A DNA stretch of 64,000 nt from Patescibacteria group bacterium (GTDB lineage Bacteria; Patescibacteriota; Minisyncoccia; Phycocordibacterales; BOKC01). The notes beneath the pieces were generated by a model, which made no database searches, was not told the DNA's origin, and saw only the letters and a program-made list of their open reading frames with translations. A program made the position numbers and the translations under genes. Of this stretch, positions 3,715-48,860 are shown one piece after another (position 1 is the first letter of the stretch; every line of letters starts with the position of its first letter). The DNA lies in assembly GCA_038062955.1 (NCBI GenBank), contig JBBTWE010000001.1:627985-691984 (forward strand), in the 5' to 3' direction.

Positions 3715-4906
3715 AGATAACTCGAAGTATCTCCTCCAAACTAGTAATGCCTGACTTTGCCTTTTTAAAACCATCTTCCAATAATGTTTGCATACCATTT
3801 TTAATTGCCACCTTTCTGATCTCGCTTGCAGTGCTTTTATTTAAAATTAAATCTCGAATTTTTTCATCAGTCGGCATTATTTCTCCGACGATAGTTCTTC
3901 CAAAAAAGCCTGTTCCATTACAAAAATCACAACCTCTGCCTCTCCAAAATTTCTGTCTTGAAATATCTTTCTTAAAAAAATCTTTGAGATAGCTTTTTTG
4001 TCCAACATCAATCTTCTCTTCTGCTTTACATTTATCACAAAGTTTTTTTACTAGCCTTTGATTGATTGCGATACTAAATGTAGAAGCTAAAAGGAATGGT
4101 TCGATACCCATTTGAATCAAGCGGGGGAGAGTAGCCGCGGCATCATTCGTATGAAGAGTCGAAAGAAGTAGATGCCCTGTGAGCGCGGCGTTCACAGCGA
4201 TGAGCGCAGTTTCTTGATCTCTAATTTCTCCGACCATAATGATATTTGGGTCCTGTCGCAAAACAGAACGCAAGCCACTCCCAAAATTTAAATTACTTCC
4301 AGCATTAACTTGAATTTGTCTTATACCAGGAATCGCATATTCAATCGGTTCCTCAATCGTGATAATCGAAACGTCGCTTTTATTTAAAGTTTTAAGAATA
4401 GCGTAAAGAGCGGTGGTCTTGCCACAACCTGTCGGACCAGTGGAAAGAATCATGCCGCTCGGTTTCAAAATCGCCTTTTTTATTTTTTGGAGATCACCAG
4501 AAGAGAAACCTAGATTTTCTAAATTTAATGATTCATTTTGATCGGAGAGCAATCGAAGGACAGCATTTTCTCCATAGTAGGTAGGCAAAACAGAAACTCG
4601 CACATCAACAAAACCTTCTCCTATAACCAATCGAAAACGACCATCTTGAGATTTTAAATGTTCATCAATTCGGAGTCCCGCCAAAATTTTTATTTTTGAA
4701 ATTATTTCTTGGTGTTTTATCAAAGGTAAAGTCGGCAATTCATACAGACTACCATCGACCCGTAAGCGAAGTCGGATTTTATCTTTAAGCGGATCTATAT
4801 GTAAATCAGAAGCTCGTGAATCAAGAGCTTTTTTTATTAGAAATTCTAGAAGGTCTGTGACTGATTTATTCGAATCAATAATTAAATTTGAAAATCTACT
4901 TTTCAT
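3707..4906 (-). CDS. GspE/PilB-family secretion ATPase, short form lacking the N-terminal domain
   Basis: Walker A motif GPTGCGKTT; C-terminal tetracysteine zinc motif CDKC...CDFCNGTG typical of GspE/PilB. At 399 aa it is shorter than the full-length PilB at 54599. Confidence 0.7.
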   Translation of the reverse strand: MKSRFSNLIIDSNKSVTDLLEFLIKKALDSRASDLHIDPLKDKIRLRLRVDGSLYELPTLPLIKHQEIISKIKILAGLRIDEHLKSQDGRFRLVIGEGFVDVRVSVLPTYYGENAVLRLLSDQNESLNLENLGFSSGDLQKIKKAILKPSGMILSTGPTGCGKTTALYAILKTLNKSDVSIITIEEPIEYAIPGIRQIQVNAGSNLNFGSGLRSVLRQDPNIIMVGEIRDQETALIAVNAALTGHLLLSTLHTNDAAATLPRLIQMGIEPFLLASTFSIAINQRLVKKLCDKCKAEEKIDVGQKSYLKDFFKKDISRQKFWRGRGCDFCNGTGFFGRTIVGEIMPTDEKIRDLILNKSTASEIRKVAIKNGMQTLLEDGFKKAKSGITSLEEILRVIYE

Positions 4907-9393: not shown

Positions 9394-9452
9394 ATCTAAA
9401 AGTGAATTATAGGGAAGAGTTTTCTTAAAATTTGATTTTCGGCTCGAAAAAT

Positions 9453-11251: not shown

Positions 11252-12235
11252 TTAAAAAGGGTTCTTGGCACCACGTACCTCGAAATGCAAATGTGGGCCA
11301 GTGGATCTGCCTGTATTACCAACATATCCTATAACTTGACCTTGGGTAACAAATTCACCGACAGACACAACATTTCGGCTGGCATGAGCGTATAGAGTTT
11401 GAGTGCCATTAGGGTGAGAAATAACAATATAATTACCGTAACCACCATTCCATCCAGCATTCCTGCTTACGGTCACAGACCCTTCCGCAGAAGCAAAAAT
11501 CTCTGTTCCGACAGGAGCGGCTAAATCAACACCATTGTATCCGTGTATCCCTTGGCTTTTGATACTTCCATTAAGTGGTTTCAAAAAATATCCTTTATAT
11601 TCTGGTTGTCCTTGAGATAATTTTGTATTTTTTGAGTATTTTGATGAATCTGCCGCCTGTAAAATTCCATTAGGAATGATAATTTCGCTTCCAACAGCAA
11701 GTTTTGAGTTCTCGGCTATATCGTTGTAATTCATAACCTCCTTGATATCTCCTTTGTAGGCGCGAACTATACCTTCTAAAGTATCACCCTTTTTAATGGT
11801 GTATCTAACACCGGAAACTGGCAAAATAACCAGAGTTTGGCCAGGAGTTAATACATTGCCCTTTATATCATTGCCCCACTTAATAGTATTTACCGAGACA
11901 TCAAACATCTCGGCAATTTGTGAGATTGTGTCTCCTTCACGAACAACGTAGATATTTATTTGACCTTTTTCTTTCAATTCTTCTCCTGAAGCACCGGCAG
12001 GTCCCATTACTGAAACCAGAGAATTGCCATCAACAATTGAGATATCAGCACCCCCAACGGATAGATTAGAAGCTAGAGGAGCACTTAAAAGATCAATTTG
12101 TTGAGAATTTGGAGCACTTATAACTTGTGCTTGGCTCTTTTCAGCGAAAATATTGGAAAAAAACGATATGATCCCAGCGTGAGCTCCAAGAGGCAACATT
12201 ACTATGAAAAAAGCAAGCGACAACTTGGTTGTCAT
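11252..12235 (-). CDS. LysM-domain M23-family peptidoglycan endopeptidase
   Basis: Two LysM motifs (VREGDTISQIAEMF, YTIKKGDTLEGIV) and an M23 active-site region (HxxxD...HLHFEV). Confidence 0.8.
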   Translation of the reverse strand: MTTKLSLAFFIVMLPLGAHAGIISFFSNIFAEKSQAQVISAPNSQQIDLLSAPLASNLSVGGADISIVDGNSLVSVMGPAGASGEELKEKGQINIYVVREGDTISQIAEMFDVSVNTIKWGNDIKGNVLTPGQTLVILPVSGVRYTIKKGDTLEGIVRAYKGDIKEVMNYNDIAENSKLAVGSEIIIPNGILQAADSSKYSKNTKLSQGQPEYKGYFLKPLNGSIKSQGIHGYNGVDLAAPVGTEIFASAEGSVTVSRNAGWNGGYGNYIVISHPNGTQTLYAHASRNVVSVGEFVTQGQVIGYVGNTGRSTGPHLHFEVRGAKNPF

Positions 12236-13524: not shown

Positions 13525-13887
13525 TTAGAGAGAGGTGCCGACAATGGGGGTAATAGTCCCAATCGGTAATCCAAAAGGGCAACAACCGCTATGACAAGGC
13601 ACTAAACAGATTCCGCCAGGACTGTAGACGCCGAGCGCCCATACGCCGGTACTGGGCAAACGATAGTAAGGAAATTGGGACGATCCAAGAGGAAAAACGA
13701 ATTGTCCACCAACCGGACCGCTGATGTTCATGATAAAATTATTGGTGCAAGCACAGTAACCTGAAAACGTAACACGACCGCCAAAAATATTCCCAGATTG
13801 ACCATAAGAAATATAAAAAATGGCAAAACTTAAAGCCAGAACCACTATTACACTGCTCGCTAATAATTTTTTGTTTTTGAATATCAT
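13525..13887 (-). CDS. small Cys-rich secreted or membrane protein
   Basis: N-terminal signal/TM segment; Cys-rich body; N-terminus MIFKNKK shared with the protein at 16980. Confidence 0.3.
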   Translation of the reverse strand: MIFKNKKLLASSVIVVLALSFAIFYISYGQSGNIFGGRVTFSGYCACTNNFIMNISGPVGGQFVFPLGSSQFPYYRLPSTGVWALGVYSPGGICLVPCHSGCCPFGLPIGTITPIVGTSL

Positions 13888-14969
13888 ATTTTTAATAAAA
13901 ACTGGCCGCTTTGTTCACTAATACCATTTGAGTTTACAACGTAAAAATAAATTGGCCATTCTATTTCCTCATTATTATATTTCTTCTTGCCTGAAAAAGC
14001 TTCAGGAAATGGCTCAACTTTGAAAGTAATTGTTTTACTATCTTTTGATTTAAGACCAGAAATAATGCCGTATCCCGCCCTAATTTCATTGTCGCTCGTA
14101 AAATTCTCTCCATGAATCGTAATTTCTTGCCCATAAATTCCTGAAGAGGGGAAGATAGAAGTGATTTTAGGTGGTAAAGAATTAGCAGAAAGAATCACAA
14201 AAAAAGTTTTATCCTCTGATTTTCCTTTTTTATTGCTAACAAAAACATCATAACGACCTTTGGCGATATCTGTCGGTACTGTGAAAGTGATAATACCATT
14301 ACTGGAGGAATTAAGATTTTTTATCTCATAATCGTCCCCAAAATGCACAATATTCCCAGTCGGAGTAAAACCGCCACCAGAGAGAGTGATGGTAGATCCT
14401 GGTAGGCCGCTATAACTTGATATAAAACCAGTAAATAATTCGGTACTCCCAGAAAAGATTGAGGTTTGAAGGCTTGGAGACAATAATGAGCTTGGATCTG
14501 TCTGGTTTGGATTGCTGTTTTCGGCTTGATTTAAGGTCGAAGGCGTCAGAATTGGGTCTTTTACCTTACTTGGGATAGAAGATTCTAAAAAAAAGTTCAA
14601 TTTATCTCTAGTTTTTTGGCCAACAAAGCCGGTGCCACGGCTTAAACCTGTCGGCACTAAAATTTCAGACGAGTATTTTTCTTGAAATCGGATAACCGCG
14701 CTCAAGGTGGCAGGCCCAAAGTAATTGGTTTCTAAGCCTTTTCCGCCCGGACCCTGAAAAGCGACCTGTGTTTCGGGATCAGAATTAAGTATTTGCTGAA
14801 GCCGCAAGACGTCTCCATTATTGTCCCCAAACTTAAGATCGTAAGAAAAAGGCAAAGAAATTAGCGTTTGAGCAGAGGTAAAATTGTATAAGAAGGTGAG
14901 AGCCAGTAGAGCAATTCCAATAATCAATCTCGATTGAATAAAAAACCTTGAAAAGAAATTATTTAACAT
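13884..14969 (-). CDS. secreted protein with a peptidoglycan-binding-like domain and IPT/TIG-like Ig domains
   Basis: PG_binding_1-like segment GDVLRLQQILN...NYFGPATLSAVIRFQ followed by two Ig-like repeats. Confidence 0.4.
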   Translation of the reverse strand: MLNNFFSRFFIQSRLIIGIALLALTFLYNFTSAQTLISLPFSYDLKFGDNNGDVLRLQQILNSDPETQVAFQGPGGKGLETNYFGPATLSAVIRFQEKYSSEILVPTGLSRGTGFVGQKTRDKLNFFLESSIPSKVKDPILTPSTLNQAENSNPNQTDPSSLLSPSLQTSIFSGSTELFTGFISSYSGLPGSTITLSGGGFTPTGNIVHFGDDYEIKNLNSSSNGIITFTVPTDIAKGRYDVFVSNKKGKSEDKTFFVILSANSLPPKITSIFPSSGIYGQEITIHGENFTSDNEIRAGYGIISGLKSKDSKTITFKVEPFPEAFSGKKKYNNEEIEWPIYFYVVNSNGISEQSGQFLLKI

Positions 14970-15078: not shown

Positions 15079-15978
15079 TTGTATACATTTCTACTTCAAA
15101 AAATGATAAGTAAAAAATCATTAGTGTTAACCCTATCAAGTCTGTTTGCTCTCCTAATAATTTTTGGAGTTTTCTCATTTGTCCATAAAGAAAATGTCAT
15201 CACATACACAGCCCCAAACGAGCCAGTTTTTTTAACGGCAAGTTTTGCAGAAACGGATAAAAAAGATTTGGAAAATTGGGAGACGGAGATTTTAAATAGA
15301 AAATCGAGCGTTTCATCAGCGCGCACGTCATACACAGAAACAATCGCTAGATCGGCTTTGACAGAATATTTCAAAGCAAAAGACGCTAACGCCGCGATGA
15401 ATGAAGATGAAATAGCAAAAAGCATTATTCAAAAAACTTCAACAGAAAGTTTAGAGAGAAAAATTGAATTTTTAGAATATCAAATCAGTGATCTTAAAAT
15501 TATTTCTGACACAGGCAAAGAAGCATTAAAAACTTATGGGAATACTGTGGGAGAAGTAGCAATCAAAAATGTTTACAATGGAACATCTGGAAATGAGTTT
15601 GAAATATTCACTCGAGCAATGAATCAGAACGACCCCGTCGAATATGAAAATTTAAAACCTATAATTTCAAATTACGAAAAATTGATTTCTGATCTCCTTA
15701 AAATAGAAACCCCGTCGAGTTTGGCTAGCTCTCATCTAAAAGTAATAAATTCCTTGAGTGCAATTGCTGGCAGTATCAAAGAATTTAATGTGTTTTTAAC
15801 TGACCCACTTCGAGGAATTTTTATTCTAGCAAAATATGGAAGATATGGTTTGGAATTACAGAACGCCATGAAAGAAATTGACGCTTCAATGAAAAAAAAT
15901 CAGGTCAATTTTATAAACACCGACCCAGGATACTCAATAGAGAGAACAGCTAACGCTTCATTACCACCAAAGCAATGA
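15079..15978 (+). CDS. hypothetical membrane-anchored protein
   Basis: N-terminal TM helix; no recognisable domain; first gene of the T4SS-like block. Confidence 0.3.
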   Translation: MYTFLLQKMISKKSLVLTLSSLFALLIIFGVFSFVHKENVITYTAPNEPVFLTASFAETDKKDLENWETEILNRKSSVSSARTSYTETIARSALTEYFKAKDANAAMNEDEIAKSIIQKTSTESLERKIEFLEYQISDLKIISDTGKEALKTYGNTVGEVAIKNVYNGTSGNEFEIFTRAMNQNDPVEYENLKPIISNYEKLISDLLKIETPSSLASSHLKVINSLSAIAGSIKEFNVFLTDPLRGIFILAKYGRYGLELQNAMKEIDASMKKNQVNFINTDPGYSIERTANASLPPKQ

Positions 15979-16949
15979 GAATAAATCTAAGAAAAATCAC
16001 TGCTTCCGCTCTTACCTTAATTTTTTTAGTCTTTTTTGTTTTTTCTGTAGCTAAAAAATCACAAGCTCAAGTTTTTGTGCCAGTTAATGATTCTCTGTTC
16101 CAAACGGCAAATACCGCCCTCATGACCAGTTCCAACATGTATACGCTCCAAACTTCTGTGGCCACTGGTTTCTCTACAGCAAATGAAATTGGTCCTGTGC
16201 CGGGGATTTATCCGGGGGCCAACGCGGGCACAATAATTTCGGCTTCTCCATTAAGTGCCAATTATTGGGCAACTGCCGCATCCCGAGCACTTTTGAATTT
16301 AATGACTCAAGACATTGTGGGATGGATAAATAATGGTTTTTCTGGAGGGGGCCCAGGCTTCGTAACAGACCCAGAAGAATTTCTTCTAAACGCGGCAGAC
16401 ACTGTTGCGGGACAATTCATTGATGGATCTGAACTTGGCTTTCTCTGTGCCCCTTTTTCTGCAGATATTCGAGCTCTTTTGGCCTATAATTATTCAGTGT
16501 CGTTCGATGTTTCTTGTACCTTGAGTAGTGTCTTAAATAGAATAGAAAATTTTACAGCTTTTACTGAAGATTTTTCGCAAGGAGGATGGGAAGGATGGTT
16601 TGCTATGATGCAACCTCAAAATAATACCTACGGCTCATACTTAAAAGCTGAAGCAGAACTATCCGCCAGAATAAGTACGCGAAATGGCACATGGGAGAAG
16701 AAACTTAATTGGGGAAGTGGATTTTTGTCTTCTCAAGATTGTATAGATCCTCCAGGCGCAACTCTGGATAATTGTAAGACGATGGGACCGATAAAAACTC
16801 CTGGAAAAACGATTGAGACTGGACTTTCAAATACTTTAGGAATTGGTTTAACAGAAATAGGACTCGCGGACAGTGTTGATAAGATTTTAAATGCTTTAAC
16901 CAATTACGCGATTATGGAAGCTTTGGGTGCTTCAGGACTCCGACCATAA
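15975..16949 (+). CDS. hypothetical secreted protein
   Basis: Signal peptide followed by a Gly/Ala-rich body; 4-nt overlap with the upstream gene. Confidence 0.3.
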   Translation: MRINLRKITASALTLIFLVFFVFSVAKKSQAQVFVPVNDSLFQTANTALMTSSNMYTLQTSVATGFSTANEIGPVPGIYPGANAGTIISASPLSANYWATAASRALLNLMTQDIVGWINNGFSGGGPGFVTDPEEFLLNAADTVAGQFIDGSELGFLCAPFSADIRALLAYNYSVSFDVSCTLSSVLNRIENFTAFTEDFSQGGWEGWFAMMQPQNNTYGSYLKAEAELSARISTRNGTWEKKLNWGSGFLSSQDCIDPPGATLDNCKTMGPIKTPGKTIETGLSNTLGIGLTEIGLADSVDKILNALTNYAIMEALGASGLRP

Positions 16950-16979
16950 TTAAGTATTGAAGATTATAAAAAGAAATAG

Positions 16980-18983
16980 ATGATATTTAAAAACAAAAAA
17001 ATATTCAGTCTTCTCTTCCTCGGGGTAATCGCCTTGAGTTTTGTTTTGATTCCTTTACCTTTTTCTGATGTAAATATTGCTAATGCTCAGGAAGTTGCTG
17101 GCCCACCAGCACCAGGATGTAGCATTTGGGATTTAACATCCTGCCTTCATGTTATTTTGTCTTACCTAGGAGGCTTAGCTATGGGTCTTTTTGGAATTGT
17201 CTTAGGAATTTCTGGAATTTTATTAAACGGGGTCATGTCGTACACAATAGTAGACATGAGTATGAATTTGAGGTCTCTATTACAGGAAGGTGGTGGAATA
17301 TATCAAGCGTGGACCACACTAAGGGACTTAGCAAATATATTATTTATTTTTATCATCCTCTACATCGCAATCGGCACTATCCTTCGCTTGGATAGCATAA
17401 ACACCAAAAAACTTTTAGTTCACGTCGTAATTATCGCTCTTCTTTTAAACTTCAGTCTATTTTTCACTAAAGTAATAATTGACGCTTCAAATATTGTGGC
17501 AACCTCATTTCATAACGCTATTGTAATAAGTGGGGGAGGAACCGGCATTTCTGATGCTTTTGTGAAACCAATGAACATGACAAGTTTCTATAATGCAGAT
17601 GGGGCATCAGCATTTCTCTTAAAAGCTAAAGATTCTCTAGCGATGGTTTTTCTCGCCGGCTTTGCGTCAATCCTTTTTTTGATAACAGCTTTTGTATTTT
17701 TTGCCTCTTCTATAATGCTTATTTCAAGATATGTAATTTTAATTTTCCTTATGATTCTCTCACCGCTCGCCTTCATTGCTATGGCTTTGCCGAAAGATGA
17801 ATATTCGAAAAAATGGTGGAACGCTTTGATTGACCAGGCTCTCTTTGCTCCAGTTTTTTTGGCTCTTTTGTGGATCGCACTCATGCTATCGAGAAGCGCT
17901 TTAACCACTATAAGTAGTGAACAGAATTTTGCTGGCATGATCGCTGAAGTATTTACTGGCAATGTGCCAACTGGTCTCATGAAGCTACTTATCAACTTTT
18001 TGATAGTCATTGGATCAATTCTCTTTGCTCTCATTGCGGCCAAACAAATCGGTGGAGCAGGCGCTTCTGGAATTATGAAGTGGGGGAAGAAAGCCGCCGG
18101 TACAGCTTTGATGGCTATTCCAGGAAGATTAGCGGCTGGTGCAGACAAAAAATTAGGAGGAACTCGATTCGGCCAAACAATGGTGGGTTCTGCTCTTAGA
18201 TCTCCTCTGGGAGGCATCGGCAAAGCCAGTGTGTTAGGTGGCAAAAGTGGAGAAAAACAGAATAAGGAAAGTGATGAGGCCGCCAAAAAATATGCTGCGG
18301 TTAGAACCAAATACGACATAAAAAAGTCTGAAAAAATTGCCGAGAAAAAGTCTGGAGCAGCAGCGGATAGAGTTCCTGGAGAAATGATTCAGGAAGCCCA
18401 AAAAACAGAAGTGGCAATAGAAGCAAATCGTCAAAAGAGGCTTGATAGAATAAAAAAAGTTGAGGAAGGAAGAATACAGCAAACACAAAACAATATGACT
18501 ATCGGTGGTTCCACACAAACAACCAAACAAGAAATTACAAAAATTAGAAGCGAGGCCACACAAAGAATACAACAAGCAAACAAGACTGCGGAGGAAAAGA
18601 AAACTGAAGCCAAAGCTACAGTAACTTTATCGAGCATACAAACAAAGCAAGAGAAAGTTAGAAAAGAAGTTTATGATGATACTAAACAAAAAGAAAAAGA
18701 TAAAAGAATAGCGGAGCTAAAAAAGTTTAAAATACCATTTGTCACCAGAGTACCATTCTTCTCCGCAAGTAATAAAAAAAGAAAATTAGCTGCTGAATTT
18801 TTAGGAAAAGGCAGGACTGAAGTCGAAACAGATTGGGATAAATTATTAAAGGAAGTGAAGGAGGCCGCCAAAAAAGAAGAAAAGGGTCATGGTGAAGATA
18901 AAGGTGGTGGAAAAACCAGCAGTGGAGGAAGCGGTGGTAGCAGTAGTGGCGGAGGAGGGGGCGGTGGGGGCGCTCATCACTAA
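16980..18983 (+). CDS. VirB6/TrbL-like polytopic membrane protein with a Lys-rich coiled-coil C-terminal tail and a Gly/Ser tail
   Basis: Signal peptide, then about 6-8 TM helices, then a long charged C-terminal extension ending GGSGGSSSGGGGGGGG. Topology and context match VirB6/PrgH-type T4SS channel proteins, but no motif-level proof. Confidence 0.35.
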   Translation: MIFKNKKIFSLLFLGVIALSFVLIPLPFSDVNIANAQEVAGPPAPGCSIWDLTSCLHVILSYLGGLAMGLFGIVLGISGILLNGVMSYTIVDMSMNLRSLLQEGGGIYQAWTTLRDLANILFIFIILYIAIGTILRLDSINTKKLLVHVVIIALLLNFSLFFTKVIIDASNIVATSFHNAIVISGGGTGISDAFVKPMNMTSFYNADGASAFLLKAKDSLAMVFLAGFASILFLITAFVFFASSIMLISRYVILIFLMILSPLAFIAMALPKDEYSKKWWNALIDQALFAPVFLALLWIALMLSRSALTTISSEQNFAGMIAEVFTGNVPTGLMKLLINFLIVIGSILFALIAAKQIGGAGASGIMKWGKKAAGTALMAIPGRLAAGADKKLGGTRFGQTMVGSALRSPLGGIGKASVLGGKSGEKQNKESDEAAKKYAAVRTKYDIKKSEKIAEKKSGAAADRVPGEMIQEAQKTEVAIEANRQKRLDRIKKVEEGRIQQTQNNMTIGGSTQTTKQEITKIRSEATQRIQQANKTAEEKKTEAKATVTLSSIQTKQEKVRKEVYDDTKQKEKDKRIAELKKFKIPFVTRVPFFSASNKKRKLAAEFLGKGRTEVETDWDKLLKEVKEAAKKEEKGHGEDKGGGKTSSGGSGGSSSGGGGGGGGAHH

Positions 18984-19068
18984 AAAATCTTGAATTGGCA
19001 GAATTTAAATAAAAAATTTAAACCGTGAGAAAAAATATCGCACAGAACTTGACAAGTTTAACAATATT

Positions 19069-19098
19069 GTTATTATCTTGAGTAGAATCCAGTATTTT
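19069..19098 (+). promoter_or_regulatory. putative sigma70 promoter: TTGACA, 17-nt spacer, ATTATC
   Basis: Consensus -35 hexamer TTGACA at 19069 with a 17-nt spacer, upstream of the AAGGAG ribosome-binding site and the 19137 start. Confidence 0.35.
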
Positions 19099-19136
19099 GC
19101 TGGGTACTCACACTTTAACCTTACAAGGAGAAAAAC

Positions 19137-19406
19137 ATGCCATACTATTGTCCTTCTTGCCGTCATCAAGTGGGCCGCAATGCAACGGTGTGCCCAAATT
19201 GCGGAGAAAGGCCTGACGAACCATATGCCACTCTTGGGTGGAAGGAGGCGATGGAAGAAGCGGGAAAAAGACTGGAAAAAGAACGGGCAGAAGAAGCAAA
19301 GAAAGAAGAAATGACCCCAGAAGAGGCGAAGACTGTGGGTTGCTTGTTTCTTTTGCTTTTGGTGGGGTTGGGGATATTCTTTCTTTATAGGCAATTTATC
19401 GCATAA
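19137..19406 (+). CDS. zinc-ribbon protein with a C-terminal TM anchor
   Basis: CPSC...CPNC zinc-ribbon motif; C-terminal hydrophobic helix; strong AAGGAG ribosome-binding site. Confidence 0.4.
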   Translation: MPYYCPSCRHQVGRNATVCPNCGERPDEPYATLGWKEAMEEAGKRLEKERAEEAKKEEMTPEEAKTVGCLFLLLLVGLGIFFLYRQFIA

Positions 19407-19527
19407 CAACACACTCGCTCGGAACTAGCCTCTGACTACACGTCGGAGGTTTTTTAATATTAGCTTAAGTGTTATAATTTTTCTAACGAACACTCTTTAG
19501 TAAATGATAATTAATCTTTGAAATAAA

Positions 19528-20457
19528 ATGGAAGATTTAAAACAATTAATAAAAGATACCTACCAAAATCTACCAGAAGATCTGCAACAAGCAGTGATGA
19601 ACCCAAGTCTTAAAAACAGACTTGAAGATATTGGAAGGAAAAATAATTTGAACGAAGCGCAAGTTCAAGCTCTAAAAAACGAAACTTATTTTGTTCTACT
19701 CGCGCTTGAAACCATAAGCGACTTCCAAACGAATTTAGACAAACAAATTAATTTGGGAGAAGAAATAGCCGGAAAAATCGCGCTTTCGGTTTACGATGGG
19801 ATTTTTAAGCCCGTAGAAATTACTCTTTTAGCCATCGAGCAGATAATAAAGGAGAAAGAAGAGGAAGATGGAATTGTACCAGAAGAAACGAAGAATAATG
19901 AAGATAAAGAGCAGGCCCCCACTATAACTCCGTCATCTCAAAAAGAAATCTCAAGACCAAAAGATTGGCCTCGTGAAAAACCAGAGTTTCAGTCTATGAA
20001 GTCAATGATTGCGCCAAGAGAGATGCAAATTCAAAAAGTAAACGAGGAAGTGACTCCTTCTCGGGGTAAAGACGCGGCAATAGAAGAGACACTCCGAAGG
20101 GCTAAAGCGGAAATGGAAGGGGGTGATGTAAGTCTCTCTGGACAAAACCTAAGCGAAATTTCCTCTAGTTCAGGAAGTGATGATTTTAAATGGCCAGATG
20201 ACGTTGCGGGAGTTCGAATAGAAAATAAATCCGAAGAAGATCCTTTTACTCAAAATGAAAACAGTGAAAATGGTGGGGAGGAAAATTTAAATAAAGCGAC
20301 AGTTCTTGAGGAGATCGAACACCCACCAGCATATATGTCTTCTGCTTTTGAAAAGAAAATGCAAAAAACAGCACCACAACAAGTCGTTCCTCCAAAAAAT
20401 AAGCCGGATGTTGTCAAATACGGACAATCAGATCCATATCGCGAGCCAACAAATTAA
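19528..20457 (+). CDS. hypothetical acidic protein
   Basis: Long ORF with a Glu/Asp-rich low-complexity C-terminal half. Confidence 0.3.
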   Translation: MEDLKQLIKDTYQNLPEDLQQAVMNPSLKNRLEDIGRKNNLNEAQVQALKNETYFVLLALETISDFQTNLDKQINLGEEIAGKIALSVYDGIFKPVEITLLAIEQIIKEKEEEDGIVPEETKNNEDKEQAPTITPSSQKEISRPKDWPREKPEFQSMKSMIAPREMQIQKVNEEVTPSRGKDAAIEETLRRAKAEMEGGDVSLSGQNLSEISSSSGSDDFKWPDDVAGVRIENKSEEDPFTQNENSENGGEENLNKATVLEEIEHPPAYMSSAFEKKMQKTAPQQVVPPKNKPDVVKYGQSDPYREPTN

Positions 20458-20507
20458 TCATTGATTCAATTTAATCTAAATTTTGAGTTTTGGCTTAATT
20501 AAAAACT

Positions 20508-20918
20508 ATGCGTTTTCAAGTTCCACAATTTACAGATGTCGAAGACAAAATAATTGGGTCTTTTACATTCAAACAATTTATTTACCTCGCAGGAGGAGGG
20601 GGAGCGTGCATAGCCCTCTATTTTCTTTTACCTTTCTTTGTGGCAATTCTTTTCATGATTCCCATAGCAGCACTCGCAGGCTCATTAGCTTTTCTTAAAA
20701 TCAACAGCCAACCTTTTGTGCAAGTTCTTGAATCTTATTTTAAATATTTAATGGCAGGTAGACTTTATATTTGGAGACACGAACCAAAAAAGATAGAAAG
20801 TGTGCCAGAAAACGGAGAAAATGATGCAAAAATAACTCTCCCAACCATGACAGAATCGAAATTAAAAGAAATCAATTGGAACCTTGATGTGAAGAAGGAT
20901 GCAGATACACCGCTTTAG
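20508..20918 (+). CDS. PrgI/VirB3-like small membrane protein
   Basis: 136 aa with a two-TM hairpin (FKQFIYLAGGGGACIALYFLLPFFVAILFMIPIAALAG) immediately upstream of VirB4, as for VirB3/PrgI-family genes. Confidence 0.45.
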   Translation: MRFQVPQFTDVEDKIIGSFTFKQFIYLAGGGGACIALYFLLPFFVAILFMIPIAALAGSLAFLKINSQPFVQVLESYFKYLMAGRLYIWRHEPKKIESVPENGENDAKITLPTMTESKLKEINWNLDVKKDADTPL

Positions 20919-20988
20919 AAAGAAATTTGATAATTTAGTAAACCAATAGAAATGATATAATCATTGCCACAGCCTCATTTACATAAAA

Positions 20989-21636
20989 ATGGAAATTAAC
21001 GCAAAAGCAACGCAAGAATTCGTTCCGATAAAAGAAGTTAGGGACGGAACAATCATACTCAAAGATAACAGTCTACGGGCCATAATCATGGCTTCTTCTA
21101 TCAATTTTGCCCTGAAGGGCGCAGATGAGAGAAACGCTATTCTCTATCAATTCCAAGTTTTTTTAAACTCCCTCGATTTTCCAGTGCAGATAGTTGTTCA
21201 GTCTCGAGAGCTTGATATACGGCCATACTTAGCTCTACTGGAACAAAGAGAGAAAAGCCAAGTAAACGAACTCATGAAAATACAGATAGAAGAGTATATC
21301 GGATTCATAAAAGATTTTACTGAAAATACGAATGTTATGACTAAAAATTTCTTTGTGGTTGTTTCCTACACCCCCGCAGTTCTTCAGGGAAAAATCAATA
21401 AAGGGATGTTGAGCGGTTTATTTGGGAAAAAAGAGAAAAAAGAAGACATCAAGAGAGGGCAGGAAGAATCTTTTGAAGAAAATCGGACACAATTAGAACA
21501 AAGGATAGCTGTCGTTGAACAAGGATTAGTGAGATGCGGTATTAGAATCGCAAGACTAGGAACAGAAGAGGTGACGGAAATATTTTATAGAGTGTTTAAT
21601 CCTGGAGAATCGGAGAAGTCTATTAAGTTGGGTTAA
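20989..21636 (+). CDS. VirB4/TrbE-like conjugal transfer ATPase, N-terminal fragment (split gene)
   Basis: N-terminal pattern (PIKEVRDGTIILKDNSLRAIIMASSINFALKGADE...QIVVQSRE) resembles the N-terminal region of Gram-positive VirB4 (TcpF/PrgJ type). Stops 48 nt before the next ORF, which is in a different frame. Confidence 0.45.
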   Translation: MEINAKATQEFVPIKEVRDGTIILKDNSLRAIIMASSINFALKGADERNAILYQFQVFLNSLDFPVQIVVQSRELDIRPYLALLEQREKSQVNELMKIQIEEYIGFIKDFTENTNVMTKNFFVVVSYTPAVLQGKINKGMLSGLFGKKEKKEDIKRGQEESFEENRTQLEQRIAVVEQGLVRCGIRIARLGTEEVTEIFYRVFNPGESEKSIKLG

Positions 21637-21683
21637 GTTTAAGGTCAGAAGTTAAACCAATAAACTTAAAACTTGTAACTACA

Positions 21684-23504
21684 ATGTCCTTAATCGATAA
21701 ATTATTTAAAAGTAAAAAACCACAGGAAGAAAATAGTGGCCCGATACTGCCGCAGGAAATTTATGAAGCGGGAGCTTTGGAACTGCGCGATATTATTGCT
21801 CCAAGCGCCCTTAAGATCAGCCCTAAGGAATTAAATTTGGGGAATAAAATCGTTAGGACGTATTTTGTAATTTCTTACCCAAGATATCTAGGGGAGAGTT
21901 GGTTTTCTCCAATTATAAACTTAGACAAAATTTTCGATGTCTCCATATTTATCCATCCAGTAGACACATCAAAAGTTTTGAAACAATTTCAAAAGAAAGT
22001 GGCCGAAATTCAGAGCCAAATCCACGCCAGGGAAGCCAAAGGAATGGTAAGGGATCCGATGCTAGACACCGCATATGAAGACTTAGAAAATCTCCGCGAC
22101 AGTCTCCAGCAGGCCCAAGAAAAACTTTTTGACGTTGGACTTTATCTTTCAATTTATGCAGAAAATGAGAATGAGCTCGATAAAATTGAGGCTGAAATTA
22201 GGTCAATTTTGGAATCCCAACTTGTCTATACAAAACCAGCCTTATTCCAACAAGAACAAGGTTTCAGAAGTGTTGTGCCGCTTGCAACTGATCTTCTGAA
22301 CGTCCACTCCAAATTAAATTCTTCACCACTTTCTAGCATCTTTCCGTTCGTCTCGTTTGATTTAACTTCAGATAAGGGAATTCTTTATGGAATCAACAGA
22401 CACAATTCCGGACTTGTTTTGTTCGACCGTTTTTCTTTGGAAAATTACAACTCCGTCACATTTGCTAAATCAGGTTCTGGAAAATCCTATGCTACAAAAT
22501 TAGAAATACTGCGAACTTTGATGTTTGATACAGATGTCATGGTAATTGACCCTGAAAGAGAGTACGAGTATATGGCTGATGCCATAGGGGGCCGTTATTT
22601 CAAAATCTCGCTGACTTCAGAACATCATATAAATCCTTTTGATTTGCCACCTGTTGGAGAAGGGGAGTCTTCGGCTGACATATTGCGATCAAGTATCATA
22701 AATCTTGTTGGTCTCTTTCGTATTATGTTTGGGGGTCTCTCTCCAGAAGAAGATGCGATTATTGATCGAGCTATCACCGAAACATACGCGCTTAAAGACA
22801 TAACCGCTGAATCTGATTTTACAAATGTTGATGTGCCAATACTGTCAGATTTTGAGATGGTTCTATCAGGAATGGAAGGAGCCGAATCTTTAGTAAACCG
22901 CTTAACCAAATATACCAAAGGAACGTGGTCTGGTTTTATAAATAAACCAACCAATGTCGATATAAATAAAAAATTTGTCGTTTTCTCTCTGCGTGATATG
23001 GAAGATGAACTCAAACCTGTCGCGATGTATATCGTCATGCACCACATTTGGGGCGCCATAAGAAAGGAACTGAAAAAACGACTGCTAGTAATAGACGAGG
23101 CATGGTGGATGATGAAATCTGAAGACACAGCCAGTTTCTTGCTTAATCTTGCTAAAAGAGGCCGAAAATACTACCTAGGGCTTTCCACAATCACTCAAGA
23201 TGTGGATGATTTCTTGAAATCTCCATACGGCATGCCGATTGTTACCAATTCTTCGATTCAAATTCTTCTCAAACAATCACCGACCACAATAGACAAACTC
23301 CAACAAACATTCAATTTAACCGAGGAAGAAAAATATTTGCTTTTGGAATCTGGAGTAGGAGAGGGAATATTCTTCGCTGGTCTTAAACATGTGGCGGTAA
23401 AAATCATAGCTTCTTATACTGAAGATCAGATCATCACCTCCGACCCATCACAGATATTGGCCATTAAGAAAGCCAAGCAGGAATTGAAGAACTCGGAAAA
23501 GTAG
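21684..23504 (+). CDS. VirB4/TrbE-like conjugal transfer ATPase, main body
   Basis: Walker A FAKSGSGKSYATKLEIL, Walker B LLVIDEAWWMM, and the VRTYFVISYPRYLGESWF VirB4-like segment. Confidence 0.7.
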   Translation: MSLIDKLFKSKKPQEENSGPILPQEIYEAGALELRDIIAPSALKISPKELNLGNKIVRTYFVISYPRYLGESWFSPIINLDKIFDVSIFIHPVDTSKVLKQFQKKVAEIQSQIHAREAKGMVRDPMLDTAYEDLENLRDSLQQAQEKLFDVGLYLSIYAENENELDKIEAEIRSILESQLVYTKPALFQQEQGFRSVVPLATDLLNVHSKLNSSPLSSIFPFVSFDLTSDKGILYGINRHNSGLVLFDRFSLENYNSVTFAKSGSGKSYATKLEILRTLMFDTDVMVIDPEREYEYMADAIGGRYFKISLTSEHHINPFDLPPVGEGESSADILRSSIINLVGLFRIMFGGLSPEEDAIIDRAITETYALKDITAESDFTNVDVPILSDFEMVLSGMEGAESLVNRLTKYTKGTWSGFINKPTNVDINKKFVVFSLRDMEDELKPVAMYIVMHHIWGAIRKELKKRLLVIDEAWWMMKSEDTASFLLNLAKRGRKYYLGLSTITQDVDDFLKSPYGMPIVTNSSIQILLKQSPTTIDKLQQTFNLTEEEKYLLLESGVGEGIFFAGLKHVAVKIIASYTEDQIITSDPSQILAIKKAKQELKNSEK

Positions 23505-23525
23505 AATCCAAATTCTCAATTAATT

Positions 23526-23867
23526 ATGATGCCTCCAACAAACACTGCTCCTCAAATATCCAGCATCTGGGCGACTATTATGGTAGGAGTGGCTTTATGT
23601 TTTGATATTATTGTCTTTCTTATCAATCTGATTCCTATTTTGGGTCAAGTTGTTGGAATGATTATTGGCTTTATTGCTTATTTAATTTTTTGGCTCTGGT
23701 TTACGTTAAAAGGAGTGAGTCTTATGAGGCCTAAGAGAGCCGCGGCAATGGGCACGGGTTTTTTAATATCCCTTATACCCATTTTGAATATGCTTCCGGA
23801 AATAACTATTTCTGTTGTTATTACTATTGCATCAACCAGGGTAAAACTACCAGGAGTAAGAGCCTAA
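23526..23867 (+). CDS. small polytopic membrane protein
   Basis: 113 aa with 3 predicted TM helices; sits in the T4SS-like block. Confidence 0.3.
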   Translation: MMPPTNTAPQISSIWATIMVGVALCFDIIVFLINLIPILGQVVGMIIGFIAYLIFWLWFTLKGVSLMRPKRAAAMGTGFLISLIPILNMLPEITISVVITIASTRVKLPGVRA

Positions 23868-23903
23868 ATCGTGTTAGAATAAATAAGTTAAAAAGGCAAA
23901 AAA

Positions 23904-24920
23904 ATGAGTTTAAACAGAATAAATTTCATATTAGCTTTATTACTGTTTATTTTTACTATTCCTCTACACGCCCAAACACTTGATTTACCAGTTTCAAATT
24001 TACCTAATGCTGAAAGTTTTTTGAGCATTAAGACAACTCCAACAAACCCCGGTCCTAGACAAAAAGTTACCGCTACTTTAATTTTTTACCAAACCGACAC
24101 CAAGAAAGCCAATATTTCCTGGTATTTAAATGCGGAATTGAAAGAAAAAAAGATTGGTAAAACAAGTTTTGAATTCGAGACTGGCGGTATAGGATCTTTT
24201 TCTTCAGTGGCTGTAGTGATAGACACTTTTGAGGGTGAAGTTTTTCAAAAAGAAATCGTGCTGCGACCAGCTGAAGTAAATCTTGTCGCAAATGCGGAAA
24301 CTTACACACCACCATTTTACAAAGGCAGGGCTCTTTATACTCAAAAAACTGACGTCAGAATTACCGCTATTCCAGAATTTTTAAATTCAGACGGTCAAAA
24401 AATCAAACCTCAAAATTTAATGTATAAATGGCAACAAGGGAATTCTGTTTTAGGAGAACAATCGGGGGTTGGTAGAAATTCTATAACCGTTCCAGGAGAA
24501 ACTATCACAAGGCCCCTCGACATTCGAGTCGAAGTTTCTACTTTGGATGAGAGAATAAAAGCAAACGGAAGCATTGTTGTCAGAAAAGGGGAGCCAAAGG
24601 TTTTGATATACGAAAAAAATCCTCTTTTAGGCCTCCTTCTTAATCAAAAAGCGGATTTACTATTTATTTCAGAAAAAGAAATTACTTTAGAAGCAGTGCC
24701 TTACTTCTTTAGTGTTCCAACAAAAAATAGTTCCGGCATAGAGTATTTCTGGACTCAAAATTCACAAAAAATTGAATCGGGAGACGAGCAAAGTTCTATT
24801 ATTTTGAGACAAACGGAAGAAAATATGACCGGCAATGTAAATATTGGCGTTCGAGTAACAAATAAAGATAACCAACTTCAAAGCGATAGTTTTAATACAG
24901 AAATTATTTTAGGAAACTAG
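23904..24920 (+). CDS. hypothetical secreted protein
   Basis: Signal peptide; body with beta-rich character. Confidence 0.3.
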   Translation: MSLNRINFILALLLFIFTIPLHAQTLDLPVSNLPNAESFLSIKTTPTNPGPRQKVTATLIFYQTDTKKANISWYLNAELKEKKIGKTSFEFETGGIGSFSSVAVVIDTFEGEVFQKEIVLRPAEVNLVANAETYTPPFYKGRALYTQKTDVRITAIPEFLNSDGQKIKPQNLMYKWQQGNSVLGEQSGVGRNSITVPGETITRPLDIRVEVSTLDERIKANGSIVVRKGEPKVLIYEKNPLLGLLLNQKADLLFISEKEITLEAVPYFFSVPTKNSSGIEYFWTQNSQKIESGDEQSSIILRQTEENMTGNVNIGVRVTNKDNQLQSDSFNTEIILGN

Positions 24921-24923
24921 AAA

Positions 24924-25529
24924 ATGCAAAACAAAACTAAAAACAAAATAATTGCCCTGCTTCTTCTTTCTGTTATTTTGACATCTTTTGGGGGCGCAAT
25001 AATTGTTTATGCCCAACCACAACAATACACGCCACTCGCTCCACTCGATCCTAATTTGGTAGGTCCTCCTGCTCCAACTAATCTAGGAACATATGCGAAT
25101 GCTATGGTAAAAATTTTAATAGGAATTGCCGCGGTTTTGGCCATAATAATGATTATGATTGGCGGACTGCAATACATGTCTACCGATGCCATAAGCGGCA
25201 AACAAGAGGGTAAAGAAAGGATAACCCAGGCATTGTTTGGTCTTGGACTTGCCATAGCAAGCTGGCTTATTCTAGCCACGATAAGTCCAACGCTCCTAAA
25301 AGTTAATTTAACTGTCATTTCTCCTCCCCAACGATGTTTCCCAATCTCAAATAATATGACTGGAGAAGCTTTTGCTTCCATTGCTTGCATACAAGAAGAA
25401 ATTAGATACCGTTCTTATTTAAACGACAATCAGTGCAGGATATTAAATTCTACCGCGTGCCGTGTGATAACAACACCGTCCCGACAGTATTGTTTTGATA
25501 TTACATATGATAACTGTTCAAGTAGTTGA
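24924..25529 (+). CDS. TrbC/VirB2-like pilin candidate
   Basis: Signal peptide followed by two hydrophobic helices (ILIGIAAVLAIIMIMIGGL and ALFGLGLAIASWLILATI), a topology typical of VirB2/TrbC pilins; adjacent to VirB4. Confidence 0.35.
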   Translation: MQNKTKNKIIALLLLSVILTSFGGAIIVYAQPQQYTPLAPLDPNLVGPPAPTNLGTYANAMVKILIGIAAVLAIIMIMIGGLQYMSTDAISGKQEGKERITQALFGLGLAIASWLILATISPTLLKVNLTVISPPQRCFPISNNMTGEAFASIACIQEEIRYRSYLNDNQCRILNSTACRVITTPSRQYCFDITYDNCSSS

Positions 25530-25536
25530 TTAAAAA

Positions 25537-27069
25537 ATGCCCAAAACCATTAAAAAAATTATTTTTGCCGCCCTATTGATTGTCCTAATTGGATTAATCG
25601 GATTTGGTTTTTGGAATTTTCAAAATAGAGACAGTGAGAGTGGAGAGGGAATAAGTATTAGAGATTTTTTACCTTTCGGAAAAGCCCCGACGGGACCTTC
25701 TACATCTACTCCAACATCTACCCCTCAAATAAATCCAGTAAATGGAGGGAGTGAGTCAGAATTGCCAAAACTTCGAAAAATTTCGGAAAAGCCGATAGCC
25801 GGCGCTTTGGCATTTAAAGATAATTCTGATTTAAAAATAAGATTCGTAGACAAAGCTACCGGACACATCTTTGAAGCAAACACTGAAGATATCAGTCTGA
25901 AAAGACTCACAAATACCACCATGCCTAAAATAGAAGAGGCGGTTTGGGCAGGAGAAAGTTCTGTGGTTTTGCGATATCTTAAAAAAGATGAGGAAACGAT
26001 AGAGAGTGTGGTTTTAAAATTAATTCCAAAAAACGAGAGTGATAGGCCGTTCGAATTTAAAAAAAATCTTAAGGAAGGAGATGTGAACGTGGATGTGCTT
26101 TATCTTCAAAAAACTTTGAATAGGGATGTTGAAACTCTTATTGCAGAATCTGGCCCAGGAAGTAGGGGAAACGAAACAAATCGTTTTGGTCCAAAAACAA
26201 CTGAAGCAGTTAAAAAATTCCAAGTTAAATATTCTGACAACATTCTGAAACCACAAAACCTAACGACTCCATCCGGACTAGTAGATGACCTCTCAAGAGA
26301 AAAACTAAACGAAATAACTGGCGTAAACGCAGAACAATCCGAAGAAGAGGAGAATCTGTATCAAACCGCCCTAACCTTCCTTTCAGAAGACATTAAAAGC
26401 CTTGCGTTTATTGAAAGTTTGCAGAAAATCTTTTACCTCGAAGAAGATAGTTTGGGCACCATTGGAACACTCGTAGACATTTCAAACCAAAAGAAAACCC
26501 AGATTTTTGAGTCTGGCGCCACAGAATGGACTGTTCACAAAAACAGGAAGGATGTGGTTATCTCAACTAAAGCCTCTGGTAACGCCGAAGGACTTATTTA
26601 TTCTCTAAGTCCTGTTGGAGCTATGAAAAAACTCTTGGGAGGACAATTGGGACTTACAGGAAATGTTTCTCCTTCAAAAGAAAAAATTCTCTATTCCGTG
26701 AGCTCAAGAAATGGTTTTACTTTAAACCTTTATGATGGCCTTCAAGACCAGTCATCCAGAATTGATCAATCAACTCTTCCAGAAAAATGTGTTTGGAGTA
26801 AATTAAATTCAAAAATTATTTACTGTGCAGTGCCTAAAAACACACCGAGCGGAGACTATCCTGAATCTTGGTACCAAGGTGGAGTGTCATTTAATGACGA
26901 TATTTGGACGATAGATACAGAAACTGAAGAGGGGATATTAACCCAAGAATTAGATTCAACCGACGGAGTGGATATGTTTCTATCGCAAGACGAACAATAC
27001 TTATTTTTTACTAATAAAAAAGACTCAAGCCTCTGGTCGTTACGTTTGGTGAATAGTGAAACAGAATAA
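25537..27069 (+). CDS. secreted protein with a peptidoglycan-binding-like domain
   Basis: PG_binding_1-like segment GDVNVDVLYLQKTLN...NRFGPKTTEAVKKFQ; N-terminal TM helix. Confidence 0.4.
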   Translation: MPKTIKKIIFAALLIVLIGLIGFGFWNFQNRDSESGEGISIRDFLPFGKAPTGPSTSTPTSTPQINPVNGGSESELPKLRKISEKPIAGALAFKDNSDLKIRFVDKATGHIFEANTEDISLKRLTNTTMPKIEEAVWAGESSVVLRYLKKDEETIESVVLKLIPKNESDRPFEFKKNLKEGDVNVDVLYLQKTLNRDVETLIAESGPGSRGNETNRFGPKTTEAVKKFQVKYSDNILKPQNLTTPSGLVDDLSREKLNEITGVNAEQSEEEENLYQTALTFLSEDIKSLAFIESLQKIFYLEEDSLGTIGTLVDISNQKKTQIFESGATEWTVHKNRKDVVISTKASGNAEGLIYSLSPVGAMKKLLGGQLGLTGNVSPSKEKILYSVSSRNGFTLNLYDGLQDQSSRIDQSTLPEKCVWSKLNSKIIYCAVPKNTPSGDYPESWYQGGVSFNDDIWTIDTETEEGILTQELDSTDGVDMFLSQDEQYLFFTNKKDSSLWSLRLVNSETE

Positions 27070-29141: not shown

Positions 29142-29260
29142 ATCCCGTACGAAATCACTGACATTTGGCGGAATTATAAATTTTTATACCAAAATTATCA
29201 GTTAATTTAAAGTGGGTTACGGAATATTTTATTTTATCCGTGCCCTACTTCGTACAGGAT
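29142..29260 (+). promoter_or_regulatory. long-range inverted repeat upstream of dnaA whose downstream arm overlaps the dnaA start codon
   Basis: atcccgtacgaaatcactgac (29142..) pairs with tccgtgccctacttcgtacaggATG (..29261); near-identical architecture upstream of pilB at 56271..56387. Confidence 0.5.
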
Positions 29261-43941: not shown

Positions 43942-43942
43942 C

Positions 43943-46603: not shown

Positions 46604-46615
46604 AATAATAAATAA

Positions 46616-47242: not shown

Positions 47243-47355
47243 ACTGACTTTATTTGATTACAATTATACTTAATTTGCTGAATTATTGTAATGCTGTACG
47301 TTGATAACAGATAAAAGACGAGATATCATTAGAAACAGTTGAATTGCTAATTTAA

Positions 47356-48849: not shown

Positions 48850-48860
48850 TTTTTTGCATC

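Follow-up and report, generated by a model that had tools for sequence, protein, structure and literature searches.

A probable chromosomal Patescibacteria type IV secretion system of the Paceibacteria arrangement, with a two-gene VirB4, between ksgA and dnaA

The window analysed here, a 64,000-nt stretch of contig JBBTWE010000001.1 from a Patescibacteria group bacterium, carries on its plus strand a block of 12 co-directional genes at 15079-27069 (all block coordinates are in window numbering). This block is very probably a vertically inherited, chromosomal Patescibacteria type IV secretion system (T4SS) in the Paceibacteria arrangement, derived from the monoderm conjugation machinery of the mating-pair-formation class FATA (MPF-FATA) and no longer an element for DNA transfer. 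It consists of a PrgI/VirB3-like protein, a VirB4 encoded by two genes, a TrbL/VirB6-like protein, a VirB2-like pilin and seven accessory membrane, secreted or small proteins. Much of bacterial diversity belongs to the Patescibacteria, most of which have not been cultured and grow on the surface of other microbes. Among the few machines shown to be essential for this attached lifestyle, in one cultured Saccharibacterium, is the T4SS. The architecture and location of the system are already known from work of 2023-2025, and the locus is a clean, complete Paceibacteria example of it, not a new kind of system. The original prediction, made from the nucleotide sequence, had proposed a co-directional T4SS-like module with PrgI/VirB3-, VirB4-, VirB6- and VirB2-like components. 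The list of open reading frames (ORFs) and the component profile matches bear out the module, and all four assignments stand. The prediction recognised the system and missed the division of VirB4 between two genes, one 89-aa gene and the prior publications.

Eleven ORFs of at least 100 aa and the 89-aa ORF make up the block. Junctions between the former are short or overlapping, and the sole sizeable gap houses the latter. Pfam families were scanned in 51 window ORFs, which make up the greater part of the non-overlapping ORFs with 100 aa or more (those at 58466-58945 and 59169-59549 are not among them), and the block proteins were compared with the curated cut-offs of Pfam and NCBIfam. Related loci are the best 80 of more than 584 VirB4 relatives among species-representative genomes, and the synteny and identity counts refer to 46 loci (46 species) with full 10-kb flanks. 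In GenBank the VirB4 of this metagenome-assembled genome (MAG) is named "DUF87 domain-containing protein" and the pilin "pilin", the third name in use being "hypothetical protein".

The putative motor of the system is divided between two neighbouring genes. The 606-aa ATPase body (21684-23504, plus strand) matches the NCBIfam model conju_CD1110 over positions 184-732 of the 752 in the profile (E 8e-111; 371.6 bits, cut-off 325) as well as P-loop_TraG (PF19044, E 8.9e-27). Both profiles are matched above their curated cut-offs, in keeping with the VirB4 ATPase that had been predicted, and matches in the PDB include VirB4 4ag5 (E 9e-39) and TrwK (E 3e-8). Both Walker motifs are intact, A reading AKSGSGKS at residues 261-268 and B reading LLVIDE at residues 467-472, and, together with the MPF-FATA-type profile above cut-off, they identify the protein as a VirB4 of the CD1110 type. 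The N-terminal domain of VirB4 is a gene of its own, which encodes a 215-aa TrsD-like protein (20989-21636, plus strand) matching the NCBIfam models VirB4_plasma (E 1.4e-11, profile positions 101-234) and TrsD (E 5.9e-7) and positions 2-120 of the CD1110 profile. The pair is colinear with the 797-aa VirB4 of a C. botulinum plasmid, residues 23-197 of which align with the 215-aa protein (E 2e-8) and residues 206-757 with the 606-aa protein (E 2e-88). In all 78 related loci that have both genes they are separate, and in none are they fused, which indicates a conserved two-gene VirB4 and not a frameshift. The TrsD-like gene is present in all 46 loci at a median identity of 61%. A frameshifted or pseudogene VirB4, considered as a separate candidate, is ruled out by the retention of the split in 78 of 78 loci.

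The 136-aa PrgI/VirB3-like protein (20508-20918, plus strand) displays two transmembrane (TM) helices that form a hairpin between residues 24 and 66. It matches PrgI (PF12666) at E 1.9e-11 with 44.8 bits against a cut-off of 27, and its gene is found in 46 of the 46 loci. Its predicted identity is thereby upheld, but its predicted position immediately upstream of the ATPase is not, as the TrsD-like gene lies between the two. The 201-aa VirB2-like pilin (24924-25529, plus strand), which possesses the signal peptide and two helices noticed originally, is recognised by T4SS_pilin (PF18895; E 1.4e-7; 31.9 bits, cut-off 26.6) and more weakly by TrbC/VirB2 (E 0.0028) and the NCBIfam model of the Mbov_0395 pilin-like protein (E 1.9e-5). 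Thirty of 31 pilin orthologues match PF18895 in their core, and the gene is in place in 45 of the 46 loci. PrgI and the pilin thus both exceed curated cut-offs, so that the profile matches are not confined to a generic ATPase.

The 667-aa protein (16980-18983, plus strand) is polytopic and bears a Lys/Gly/Glu-rich tail of about 270 aa that finishes in a poly-Gly/Ser run, resembling an "extended VirB6". Its assignment as VirB6/TrbL-like is indirect but convergent. TrbL/VirB6 (PF04610) is matched by 7 of 43 orthologues (best E 6e-5), database homologues bear PF19590, PF04610 or PF19597, and the protein itself weakly matches the NCBIfam model of Mbov_0396 (E 8.7e-4), a TM protein of a Mycoplasma integrated conjugative element (ICE). 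An AlphaFold (AF2) model of residues 1-440 reached a predicted local distance difference test (pLDDT) score of 84. When compared by Foldseek with 350,542 PDB chains, its best two matches were R388 TrwI/VirB6 chains, 8rtd_L and 7o3v_F, with probabilities of 1.00 and 0.99 and TM-scores of 0.52 and 0.49, respectively. Searches of the protein in Pfam (E up to 0.1), by phmmer against PDB sequences and against PDB profiles returned matches of the low-complexity tail only. As these direct searches, and an hhalign comparison described below, were empty, the VirB6 call rests on the orthologue TrbL matches and Foldseek, which together favour what the topology and the long charged tail had first suggested. 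The gene is in place in 45 of the 46 loci.

Families of VirD4, relaxase, integrase or recombinase have no match among the 51 scanned window ORFs (oriT was outside the search), and tblastn with the VirD4 of the Clostridium plasmid gave no match, either in the window or up to 10 kb from virB4 in the 80 loci. The earlier remark that neither a relaxase nor a coupling protein is in view therefore holds for the window. VirB7, VirB9, VirB10 and VirB11 have no Pfam or NCBIfam match in the block, and VirB5 is likewise not recognisable there.

The block sits between ksgA on one side and jag-yidC-rnpA-rpmH and dnaA-dnaN on the other, and this setting is shared by its relatives. The order and strand of the main genes are kept in 42-46 of the 46 Paceibacteria species, with VirB4 in place in every locus and the flanking genes in place in 42 (ksgA), 45 (yidC), 45 (dnaA) and 44 (dnaN). 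Median identity over the 46 species is 79% for VirB4, compared with 61% for DnaA, 50% for YidC, 48% for DnaN and 47% for KsgA. None of the other proteins in this comparison of 20 is as conserved as VirB4, which suggests that purifying selection on the ATPase is unusually strong. The best 80 VirB4 genome matches all derive from Patescibacteria MAGs at 76-85% identity, labelled as Paceibacteria/Parcubacteria, Zambryskibacteria, Taylorbacteria, Campbellbacteria or Nomurabacteria, or generically as "bacterium" or "uncultured Candidatus Saccharibacteria". Among more than 5000 plasmid VirB4 matches, the best has 36% identity and belongs to Firmicutes or Actinobacteria and to the CD1110 (MPF-FATA) family. 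The lineage placement of VirB4 was judged by this identity proxy, from the best 80 genome matches and the plasmid matches. The conserved gene order and a VirB4 more conserved than DnaA argue for a vertically inherited core system and not a mobile element. Similarly, the signature of a mobile element is lacking: there is no integrase match among the scanned ORFs, the GC content of the block (0.380) is like that outside it (0.377) and synteny extends across species. A recently acquired island was also considered and rejected on the strength of the flank-like GC and the conserved synteny. The suggestion of a non-conjugative T4SS in the original prediction agrees with the lack of a relaxase and coupling protein, the housekeeping, origin-proximal site and the synteny over 46 species.

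The same gene set and neighbourhood emerge when the locus is compared, as the original prediction had advised, with published Patescibacteria T4SS loci. In the relevant part of their survey, Quinonero-Coronel et al. (2025; PMC12102498) place most Patescibacteria VirB4s in one monophyletic clade nested in MPF-FATA and covering 2407 of 3035 genomes. The surroundings of virB4 include genes for TrsD, PrgI/VirB3, VirB6 and VirB2-like pilins, and TrsD is the most abundant T4SS-associated protein of the group; relaxases occur in only 103 of the 3035 genomes, and coupling-protein homologues are rarely near virB4 (PMC12102498). For Paceibacteria and Microgenomatia this part of the survey gives a T4SS neighbourhood of dnaA, dnaN, rnpA, ksgA and rpmH (PMC12102498). 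The present locus shares with that Paceibacteria arrangement the VirB4, the adjacent TrsD-like protein, PrgI/VirB3, VirB6 and the VirB2-like pilin, the lack of a nearby relaxase or coupling protein, and the vicinity of dnaA, dnaN, rnpA, rpmH and ksgA. Nothing essential differs, although here there is a single pilin gene and not an array, the pilin tail and the 324-aa protein are short, and an 89-aa zinc-ribbon gene and a PG_binding_1-like insertion in the 510-aa protein are additional.

The functional evidence comes from Southlakia epibionticum, a Saccharibacterium, in which transposon sequencing (Tn-seq) by Wang et al. (2023; PMC10633639) found the T4SS cluster essential for epibiotic growth. 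According to the section of that study devoted to it, this T4SS has unusual pilins and lacks coupling and relaxase proteins (PMC10633639). The system of strain ML1 (SEML1_0006-0019) resembles the present one in being chromosomal, origin-proximal and Gram-positive-like, in its VirB2-like pilins, in the lack of coupling and relaxase proteins recognisable within its cluster and in its coexistence with type IV pili. In contrast, it belongs to the class Saccharimonadia, carries six divergent pilins in an array and has peptidase and lysozyme genes 3' of virB4. A 2025 FEMS review speculates, in its passage on the system, that it forms a conduit resembling a pilus, through which exchange with the host takes place (PMC12857230).

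Among better-known systems, the MPF-FATA elements of the CTn2/CD1110 type, exemplified by C. botulinum pCDC3875, present the same order of VirB6-like protein, PrgI and VirB4, and their VirB4 is 32-36% identical to that of the window. The genes of the Clostridium plasmid run VirD4, hypothetical protein, VirB6 (CD1112), PrgI, hypothetical protein, VirB4, hypothetical protein and SLT hydrolase. Unlike the block, the CD1110 subclass possesses VirD4 (CD1115), a relaxase and a large SLT/CHAP VirB1-like hydrolase, has no VirB2 pilin and is found on mobile elements. When the pCDC3875 transfer proteins were compared with the window and the 80 loci (phmmer, tblastn), VirB4 and TrsD were the only ones recovered, and seven other proteins of the plasmid cluster had no match in the block (best E 0.032). 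Systems of the pGO1 type, as the survey describes them, likewise encode TrsD apart from the ATPase (the TrsD/TrsE split), and this TrsD is related to the N-terminus of VirB4 (PMC12102498). The Mycoplasma ICE is a wall-less or monoderm system and likewise includes a pilin-like protein. The NCBIfam models of its adjacent Mbov_0395 (pilin-like), Mbov_0396 (TM) and Mbov_0397 (VirB4) proteins are each matched here, the VirB4 model by both the ATPase body (E 2.8e-77) and the N-domain (E 1.4e-11). These matches fall below the equivalog cut-offs and thus do not place the proteins in the same families. In Mycoplasma, however, the module belongs to an ICE that is mobile and encodes a coupling protein as well as a DDE recombinase. 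The R388 and VirB-D4 systems (MPF-T) have counterparts of VirB2, VirB3, VirB4 and VirB6, and TrwI is the best fold match of the VirB6-like protein. In contrast, their outer-membrane core of VirB7/9/10, their VirB11 and their VirD4 have no match here, and TrwK is matched only at E 3e-8.

As judged from the protein sequences, the two-part VirB4 (the 215-aa N-domain and the 606-aa ATPase) would act as the motor and would dock on the single membrane through the PrgI/VirB3-like and VirB6/TrbL-like proteins, the latter presumably forming a membrane channel or a pilus-assembly platform. The motor may pull the VirB2-like pilin from the membrane and build a short putative pilus or a conduit crossing the wall, and the 324-, 338-, 510-, 299- and 113-aa proteins would complete the part that spans the envelope and contacts the host. 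Such a machine would serve the dependence on a host cell and not conjugation, most likely by exporting proteins onto or into the host or by acting as a contact conduit. We infer this role in host dependence from the lack of a relaxase and coupling protein and from the published Saccharibacterium genetics.

Several observations weigh against the reading of the block as a complete T4SS serving a host-dependent life. VirD4 homologues are far from virB4 in most Patescibacteria, according to the part of the literature that treats them, and a coupling protein may be encoded elsewhere in the genome of about 0.7 Mb. No VirB8-like protein (PrgL/TraM) and no VirB1-like SLT/CHAP hydrolase was found in the block by Pfam or NCBIfam, six of the 12 products (299, 324, 309, 113, 338 and 89 aa) are without a recognisable family, and the 510-aa protein has sub-threshold family matches only. 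For the VirB6-like protein, the 667-aa sequence itself has no Pfam match, the Foldseek match to 8rtd_L has an E-value of 0.059, and hhalign of the family profile against the single Clostridium CD1112 VirB6 found nothing (probability 0.2). The pilus step of the mechanism is conjectural as well. Finally, the essentiality data refer to Saccharimonadia, a class other than Paceibacteria, in the experiments described (PMC10633639).

An unlikely alternative, and the one that survives best, is that the VirB4-VirB6 platform mainly serves attachment, assembling a host-binding pilus or surface structure without translocating any substrate. A VirB2-like pilin is present although monoderm T4SSs are normally without one, as the review has it in its T4SS section (PMC12857230). 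The pilin tail is hypervariable and Cys-rich, most orthologues of the 324-aa family carry variable discoidin, Ig, fn3 or PKD domains, and the coupling protein, the usual substrate receptor, is not encoded nearby. However, the adhesion device implicated by experiment in the phylum is the type IV pilus, whose genes the window also carries, and the Ptl and Brucella VirB systems secrete without a coupling protein, both as stated in the pertinent parts of PMC12102498 and PMC12857230. Moreover, adhesion and translocation are not mutually exclusive.

Import of host DNA for nucleotides or genes, by a machine comparable to Helicobacter ComB or archaeal Ced, is improbable. DNA importers derived from T4SSs do exist, VirB4 weakly matches the CedB model (E 5e-8, 32 bits), and nearby genes include those of type IV pili and one for a Mg-chelatase-family protein of the ComM type (9432-11015). 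In addition, the T4SS of the class ABY1 adjoins comF, recG and radA in the loci described by PMC12102498, and these bacteria cannot make nucleotides, as noted in the relevant sections of PMC12857230 and PMC10633639. The 32 bits, however, compare with a CedB cut-off of 700 and reflect general VirB4 homology, CedD scores 13.8 bits against a cut-off of 600, no other Ced or ComB model of NCBIfam is matched, and the block has no gene for ComEC, ComEA or DprA. Competence in Southlakia needs ComEC as well as type IV pili, and cells deleted for comEC are viable, as reported in the corresponding parts of PMC10633639 and PMC12857230. The T4SS is essential, so that its essentiality is not explained by ComEC-dependent DNA uptake.

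The notion of an ICE, or the remnant of one, moving DNA to other cells is already largely refuted and scarcely credible: VirB4, PrgI, VirB6 and the pilin do descend from conjugation machinery, the nearest relatives outside Patescibacteria are conjugative or mobilisable Firmicutes plasmids and the models of three adjacent Mycoplasma ICE genes each match here, but there is no relaxase, coupling protein, integrase or recombinase among the scanned ORFs, the GC content is that of the flanks, ksgA and the rnpA-dnaA origin region enclose the block in an order kept across 46 species, a VirB4 more conserved than DnaA is the opposite of the mobile-element pattern, and relaxases are as rare in Patescibacteria genomes as cited above.

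Within the T4SS interpretation, one variable component is the pilin, by its C-terminus. The two-helix core (residues 31-128) is about 50% identical to its orthologues, whereas the 70-aa tail (residues 131-201, window 25314-25529), which contains six Cys, has only 4-14% identity. The pilin orthologues, whose median length is 313 aa, have tails that are mutually unrelated, and we take the C-terminus to be extracytoplasmic by the established VirB2 topology. Tail domains found in single orthologues are NlpC/P60, SLT, He_PIG (an Ig domain) and, weakly, Peptidase_M15_4. In one related locus (L024:3479-5203) the pilin core at 265-327 is followed at 394-501 by NlpC/P60, with the hydrolase above its cut-off. 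A homologue search with the pilin core gave 4 proteins only, too few to generalise the pilin fusions.

The second variable component is the 324-aa secreted protein encoded directly 5' of VirB6 (15975-16949, plus strand), a candidate surface or host-contact subunit. Its gene is in place in 42 of the 46 loci and its family has a conserved N-terminal region. Twenty-four of 30 orthologues, however, run 99-422 aa past its C-terminus, so that the window copy is a short form. The extensions, found in orthologues drawn from loci L001-L041, match F5/8 type C (discoidin; 5 cases), Bact_surface_Ig-like (2), InlB B-repeat (2), fn3, PKD and DUF4141 (2), the last of which is presumably a family of Bacteroidetes conjugative transposons. 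An AlphaFold model of the 324-aa protein, built with 19 homologues, had a pLDDT of 51, too poor for a fold search.

Tentatively, the Paceibacteria pilin and the 324-aa-family protein may be modular host-interaction proteins and not simple structural subunits. The conserved part docking on the T4SS may be the two-helix pilin core, or the N-domain of about 300 aa in the 324-aa family. The fast-diversifying extracellular C-terminal cargo may consist of Cys-rich tails, of adhesin domains (Ig, discoidin, fn3, PKD) or of peptidoglycan hydrolases (NlpC/P60, SLT or M15). If so, the T4SS would display or deliver species-specific domains for host recognition and wall breaching, the tails would set host range, and the variable extracellular tails of the two proteins could serve to predict host specificity. 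This possibility draws on few orthologues. The T4SS sections of the published accounts (PMC12102498, PMC10633639, PMC12857230) do not discuss modularity of the pilin or 324-aa tails.

The remaining accessory proteins differ in how widely they are conserved. Universal partners of this T4SS include the 338-aa protein (23904-24920, plus strand), secreted through a signal peptide, beta-rich and present in 46 of the 46 loci. It has no Pfam or NCBIfam match, and its orthologue profile gives only weak Ig-like matches in the PDB (Hoc, E 0.0058, and SGBP-B), so that the protein is probably built of Ig-like repeats. The 510-aa protein (25537-27069, plus strand), also encoded in all 46 loci, is anchored by an N-terminal TM helix and carries a TolB/PD40-like beta-propeller, for which the signals are weak: its orthologues match PD40 (3), DPPIV_N (2) and PG_binding_1 (2; best E 1.9e-5). 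Its own PG_binding_1 match is sub-threshold (E 0.0017; 19 bits, cut-off 23) and covers residues 173-250, an insertion absent in more than 80% of orthologues. The peptidoglycan-binding secreted proteins proposed in the original prediction thus reduce to this single sub-threshold match in a lineage-specific insertion, and no other block protein has a match of this type.

The 299-aa protein (15079-15978, plus strand), detectable at the equivalent position in 25 of the 46 loci, is bitopic: a single TM helix at the N-terminus is joined to an extracytoplasmic domain that is helical. ATG 15103 is more likely to be its start than TTG 15079, and it has no match in Pfam, NCBIfam or the PDB. For the 299-, 324- and 510-aa proteins, PDB searches with orthologue profiles gave no informative match. 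A small polytopic protein of 113 aa with about four TM helices (23526-23867, plus strand) is detectable directly 3' of VirB4 in 19 of the 46 loci. The 309-aa protein (19528-20457, plus strand) is acidic, largely of low complexity and without TM helices, and is probably cytoplasmic; only its N-terminal approximately 30% is detectable at the equivalent position, in 14 of the 46 loci. Neither the 309-aa nor the 113-aa protein has a Pfam or NCBIfam family match.

The product of the 89-aa gene (19137-19406, plus strand), which separates the VirB6-like and 309-aa genes, combines a CxxC...CxxC zinc ribbon at its N-terminus with a TM helix at its C-terminus (residues 63-89), and NCBI annotates a 72-aa version of it (AAB534_03345). 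The 80 related loci yielded no homologue. Of the promoter-like sites in the region, the best (19049-19076, sigma-70-like, 11 of 12 matches plus a TG extension) lies on the 5' side of the gene and the best terminator-like hairpin of the region (19427-19451) on its 3' side, and the gene appears to be a lineage-specific insertion and a transcription unit of its own.

The flanks of the block accommodate housekeeping, pilus and cell-wall genes. The 5' side carries type IV pilus genes, pnp, the ComM-type ATPase, an M23/LysM hydrolase and ksgA. The hydrolase (11252-12235, minus strand; Peptidase_M23, PF01551, E 5.4e-32; LysM, E 7.9e-22) lies outside the block, 3 kb 5' of it and on the opposite strand, and is a candidate stand-in for the missing VirB1. 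M23/LysM domains are noted in Patescibacteria VirB1-like proteins in the survey passage concerned (PMC12102498). Directly 3' of the block, jag, yidC, rnpA and rpmH follow on the minus strand, and then dnaA (29259-30608) and dnaN. The dnaA-dnaN spacer contains a putative oriC at 30619-30786, about 3.5 kb past the block end, where four of the 21 DnaA-box-like 9-mers of the window fall within 170 bp, one of the four being perfect. GC skew was uninformative and did not locate the origin, so that its position is not firmly established. If the DnaA-box cluster is oriC, the whole 12-kb block is transcribed toward the origin, head-on to the leftward fork. The orientation of the block relative to the dnaA-dnaN origin region is kept in 45 of the 46 species.

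Type IV pilus genes occupy the same origin-proximal 64 kb. Two N-methyl pilins are encoded at 721-2587 and PilC (T2SSF) at 2623, and of two T2SSE-family ATPases, both beside pilus genes, one is of the PilT/PilB type (3707-4906) and the second of the PilB type with MshEN (54599-56272). The type IV pilus of Patescibacteria has been experimentally implicated in adhesion and competence, according to the sections of PMC12102498 and PMC12857230 that deal with it.

Several further loci of the window encode surface proteins or stand out in composition. Two genes at 13525-14969, divergent from the block, encode a surface protein of 361 aa with an IPT/TIG domain, which occurs at the equivalent position in 19 of the 46 related loci, and a TM protein of 120 aa. 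The GC content rises to 0.46-0.47 at 56001-60000, compared with about 0.37 elsewhere. Rfam and tRNA scans of the window detected nothing, and accordingly show no RNA gene in this segment. A 424-aa ORF with a GTG start and no family match (56945-58219) is overlapped there by several ORFs on both strands. The region 43372-51493 encodes large proteins with few or no family matches. Those of the minus strand have 189, 886 and 208 aa, those of the plus strand 497 aa (MG2 and dockerin), 302 aa and 588 aa (with a weak Big_7 match), and this run may be a surface-protein cluster. Closer to the block, at 33353-37385, two Kelch-repeat beta-propeller proteins of 401 and 384 aa surround a 503-aa protein without a family match; Kelch repeats are an unusual, eukaryote-like family for a bacterium with a tiny genome.

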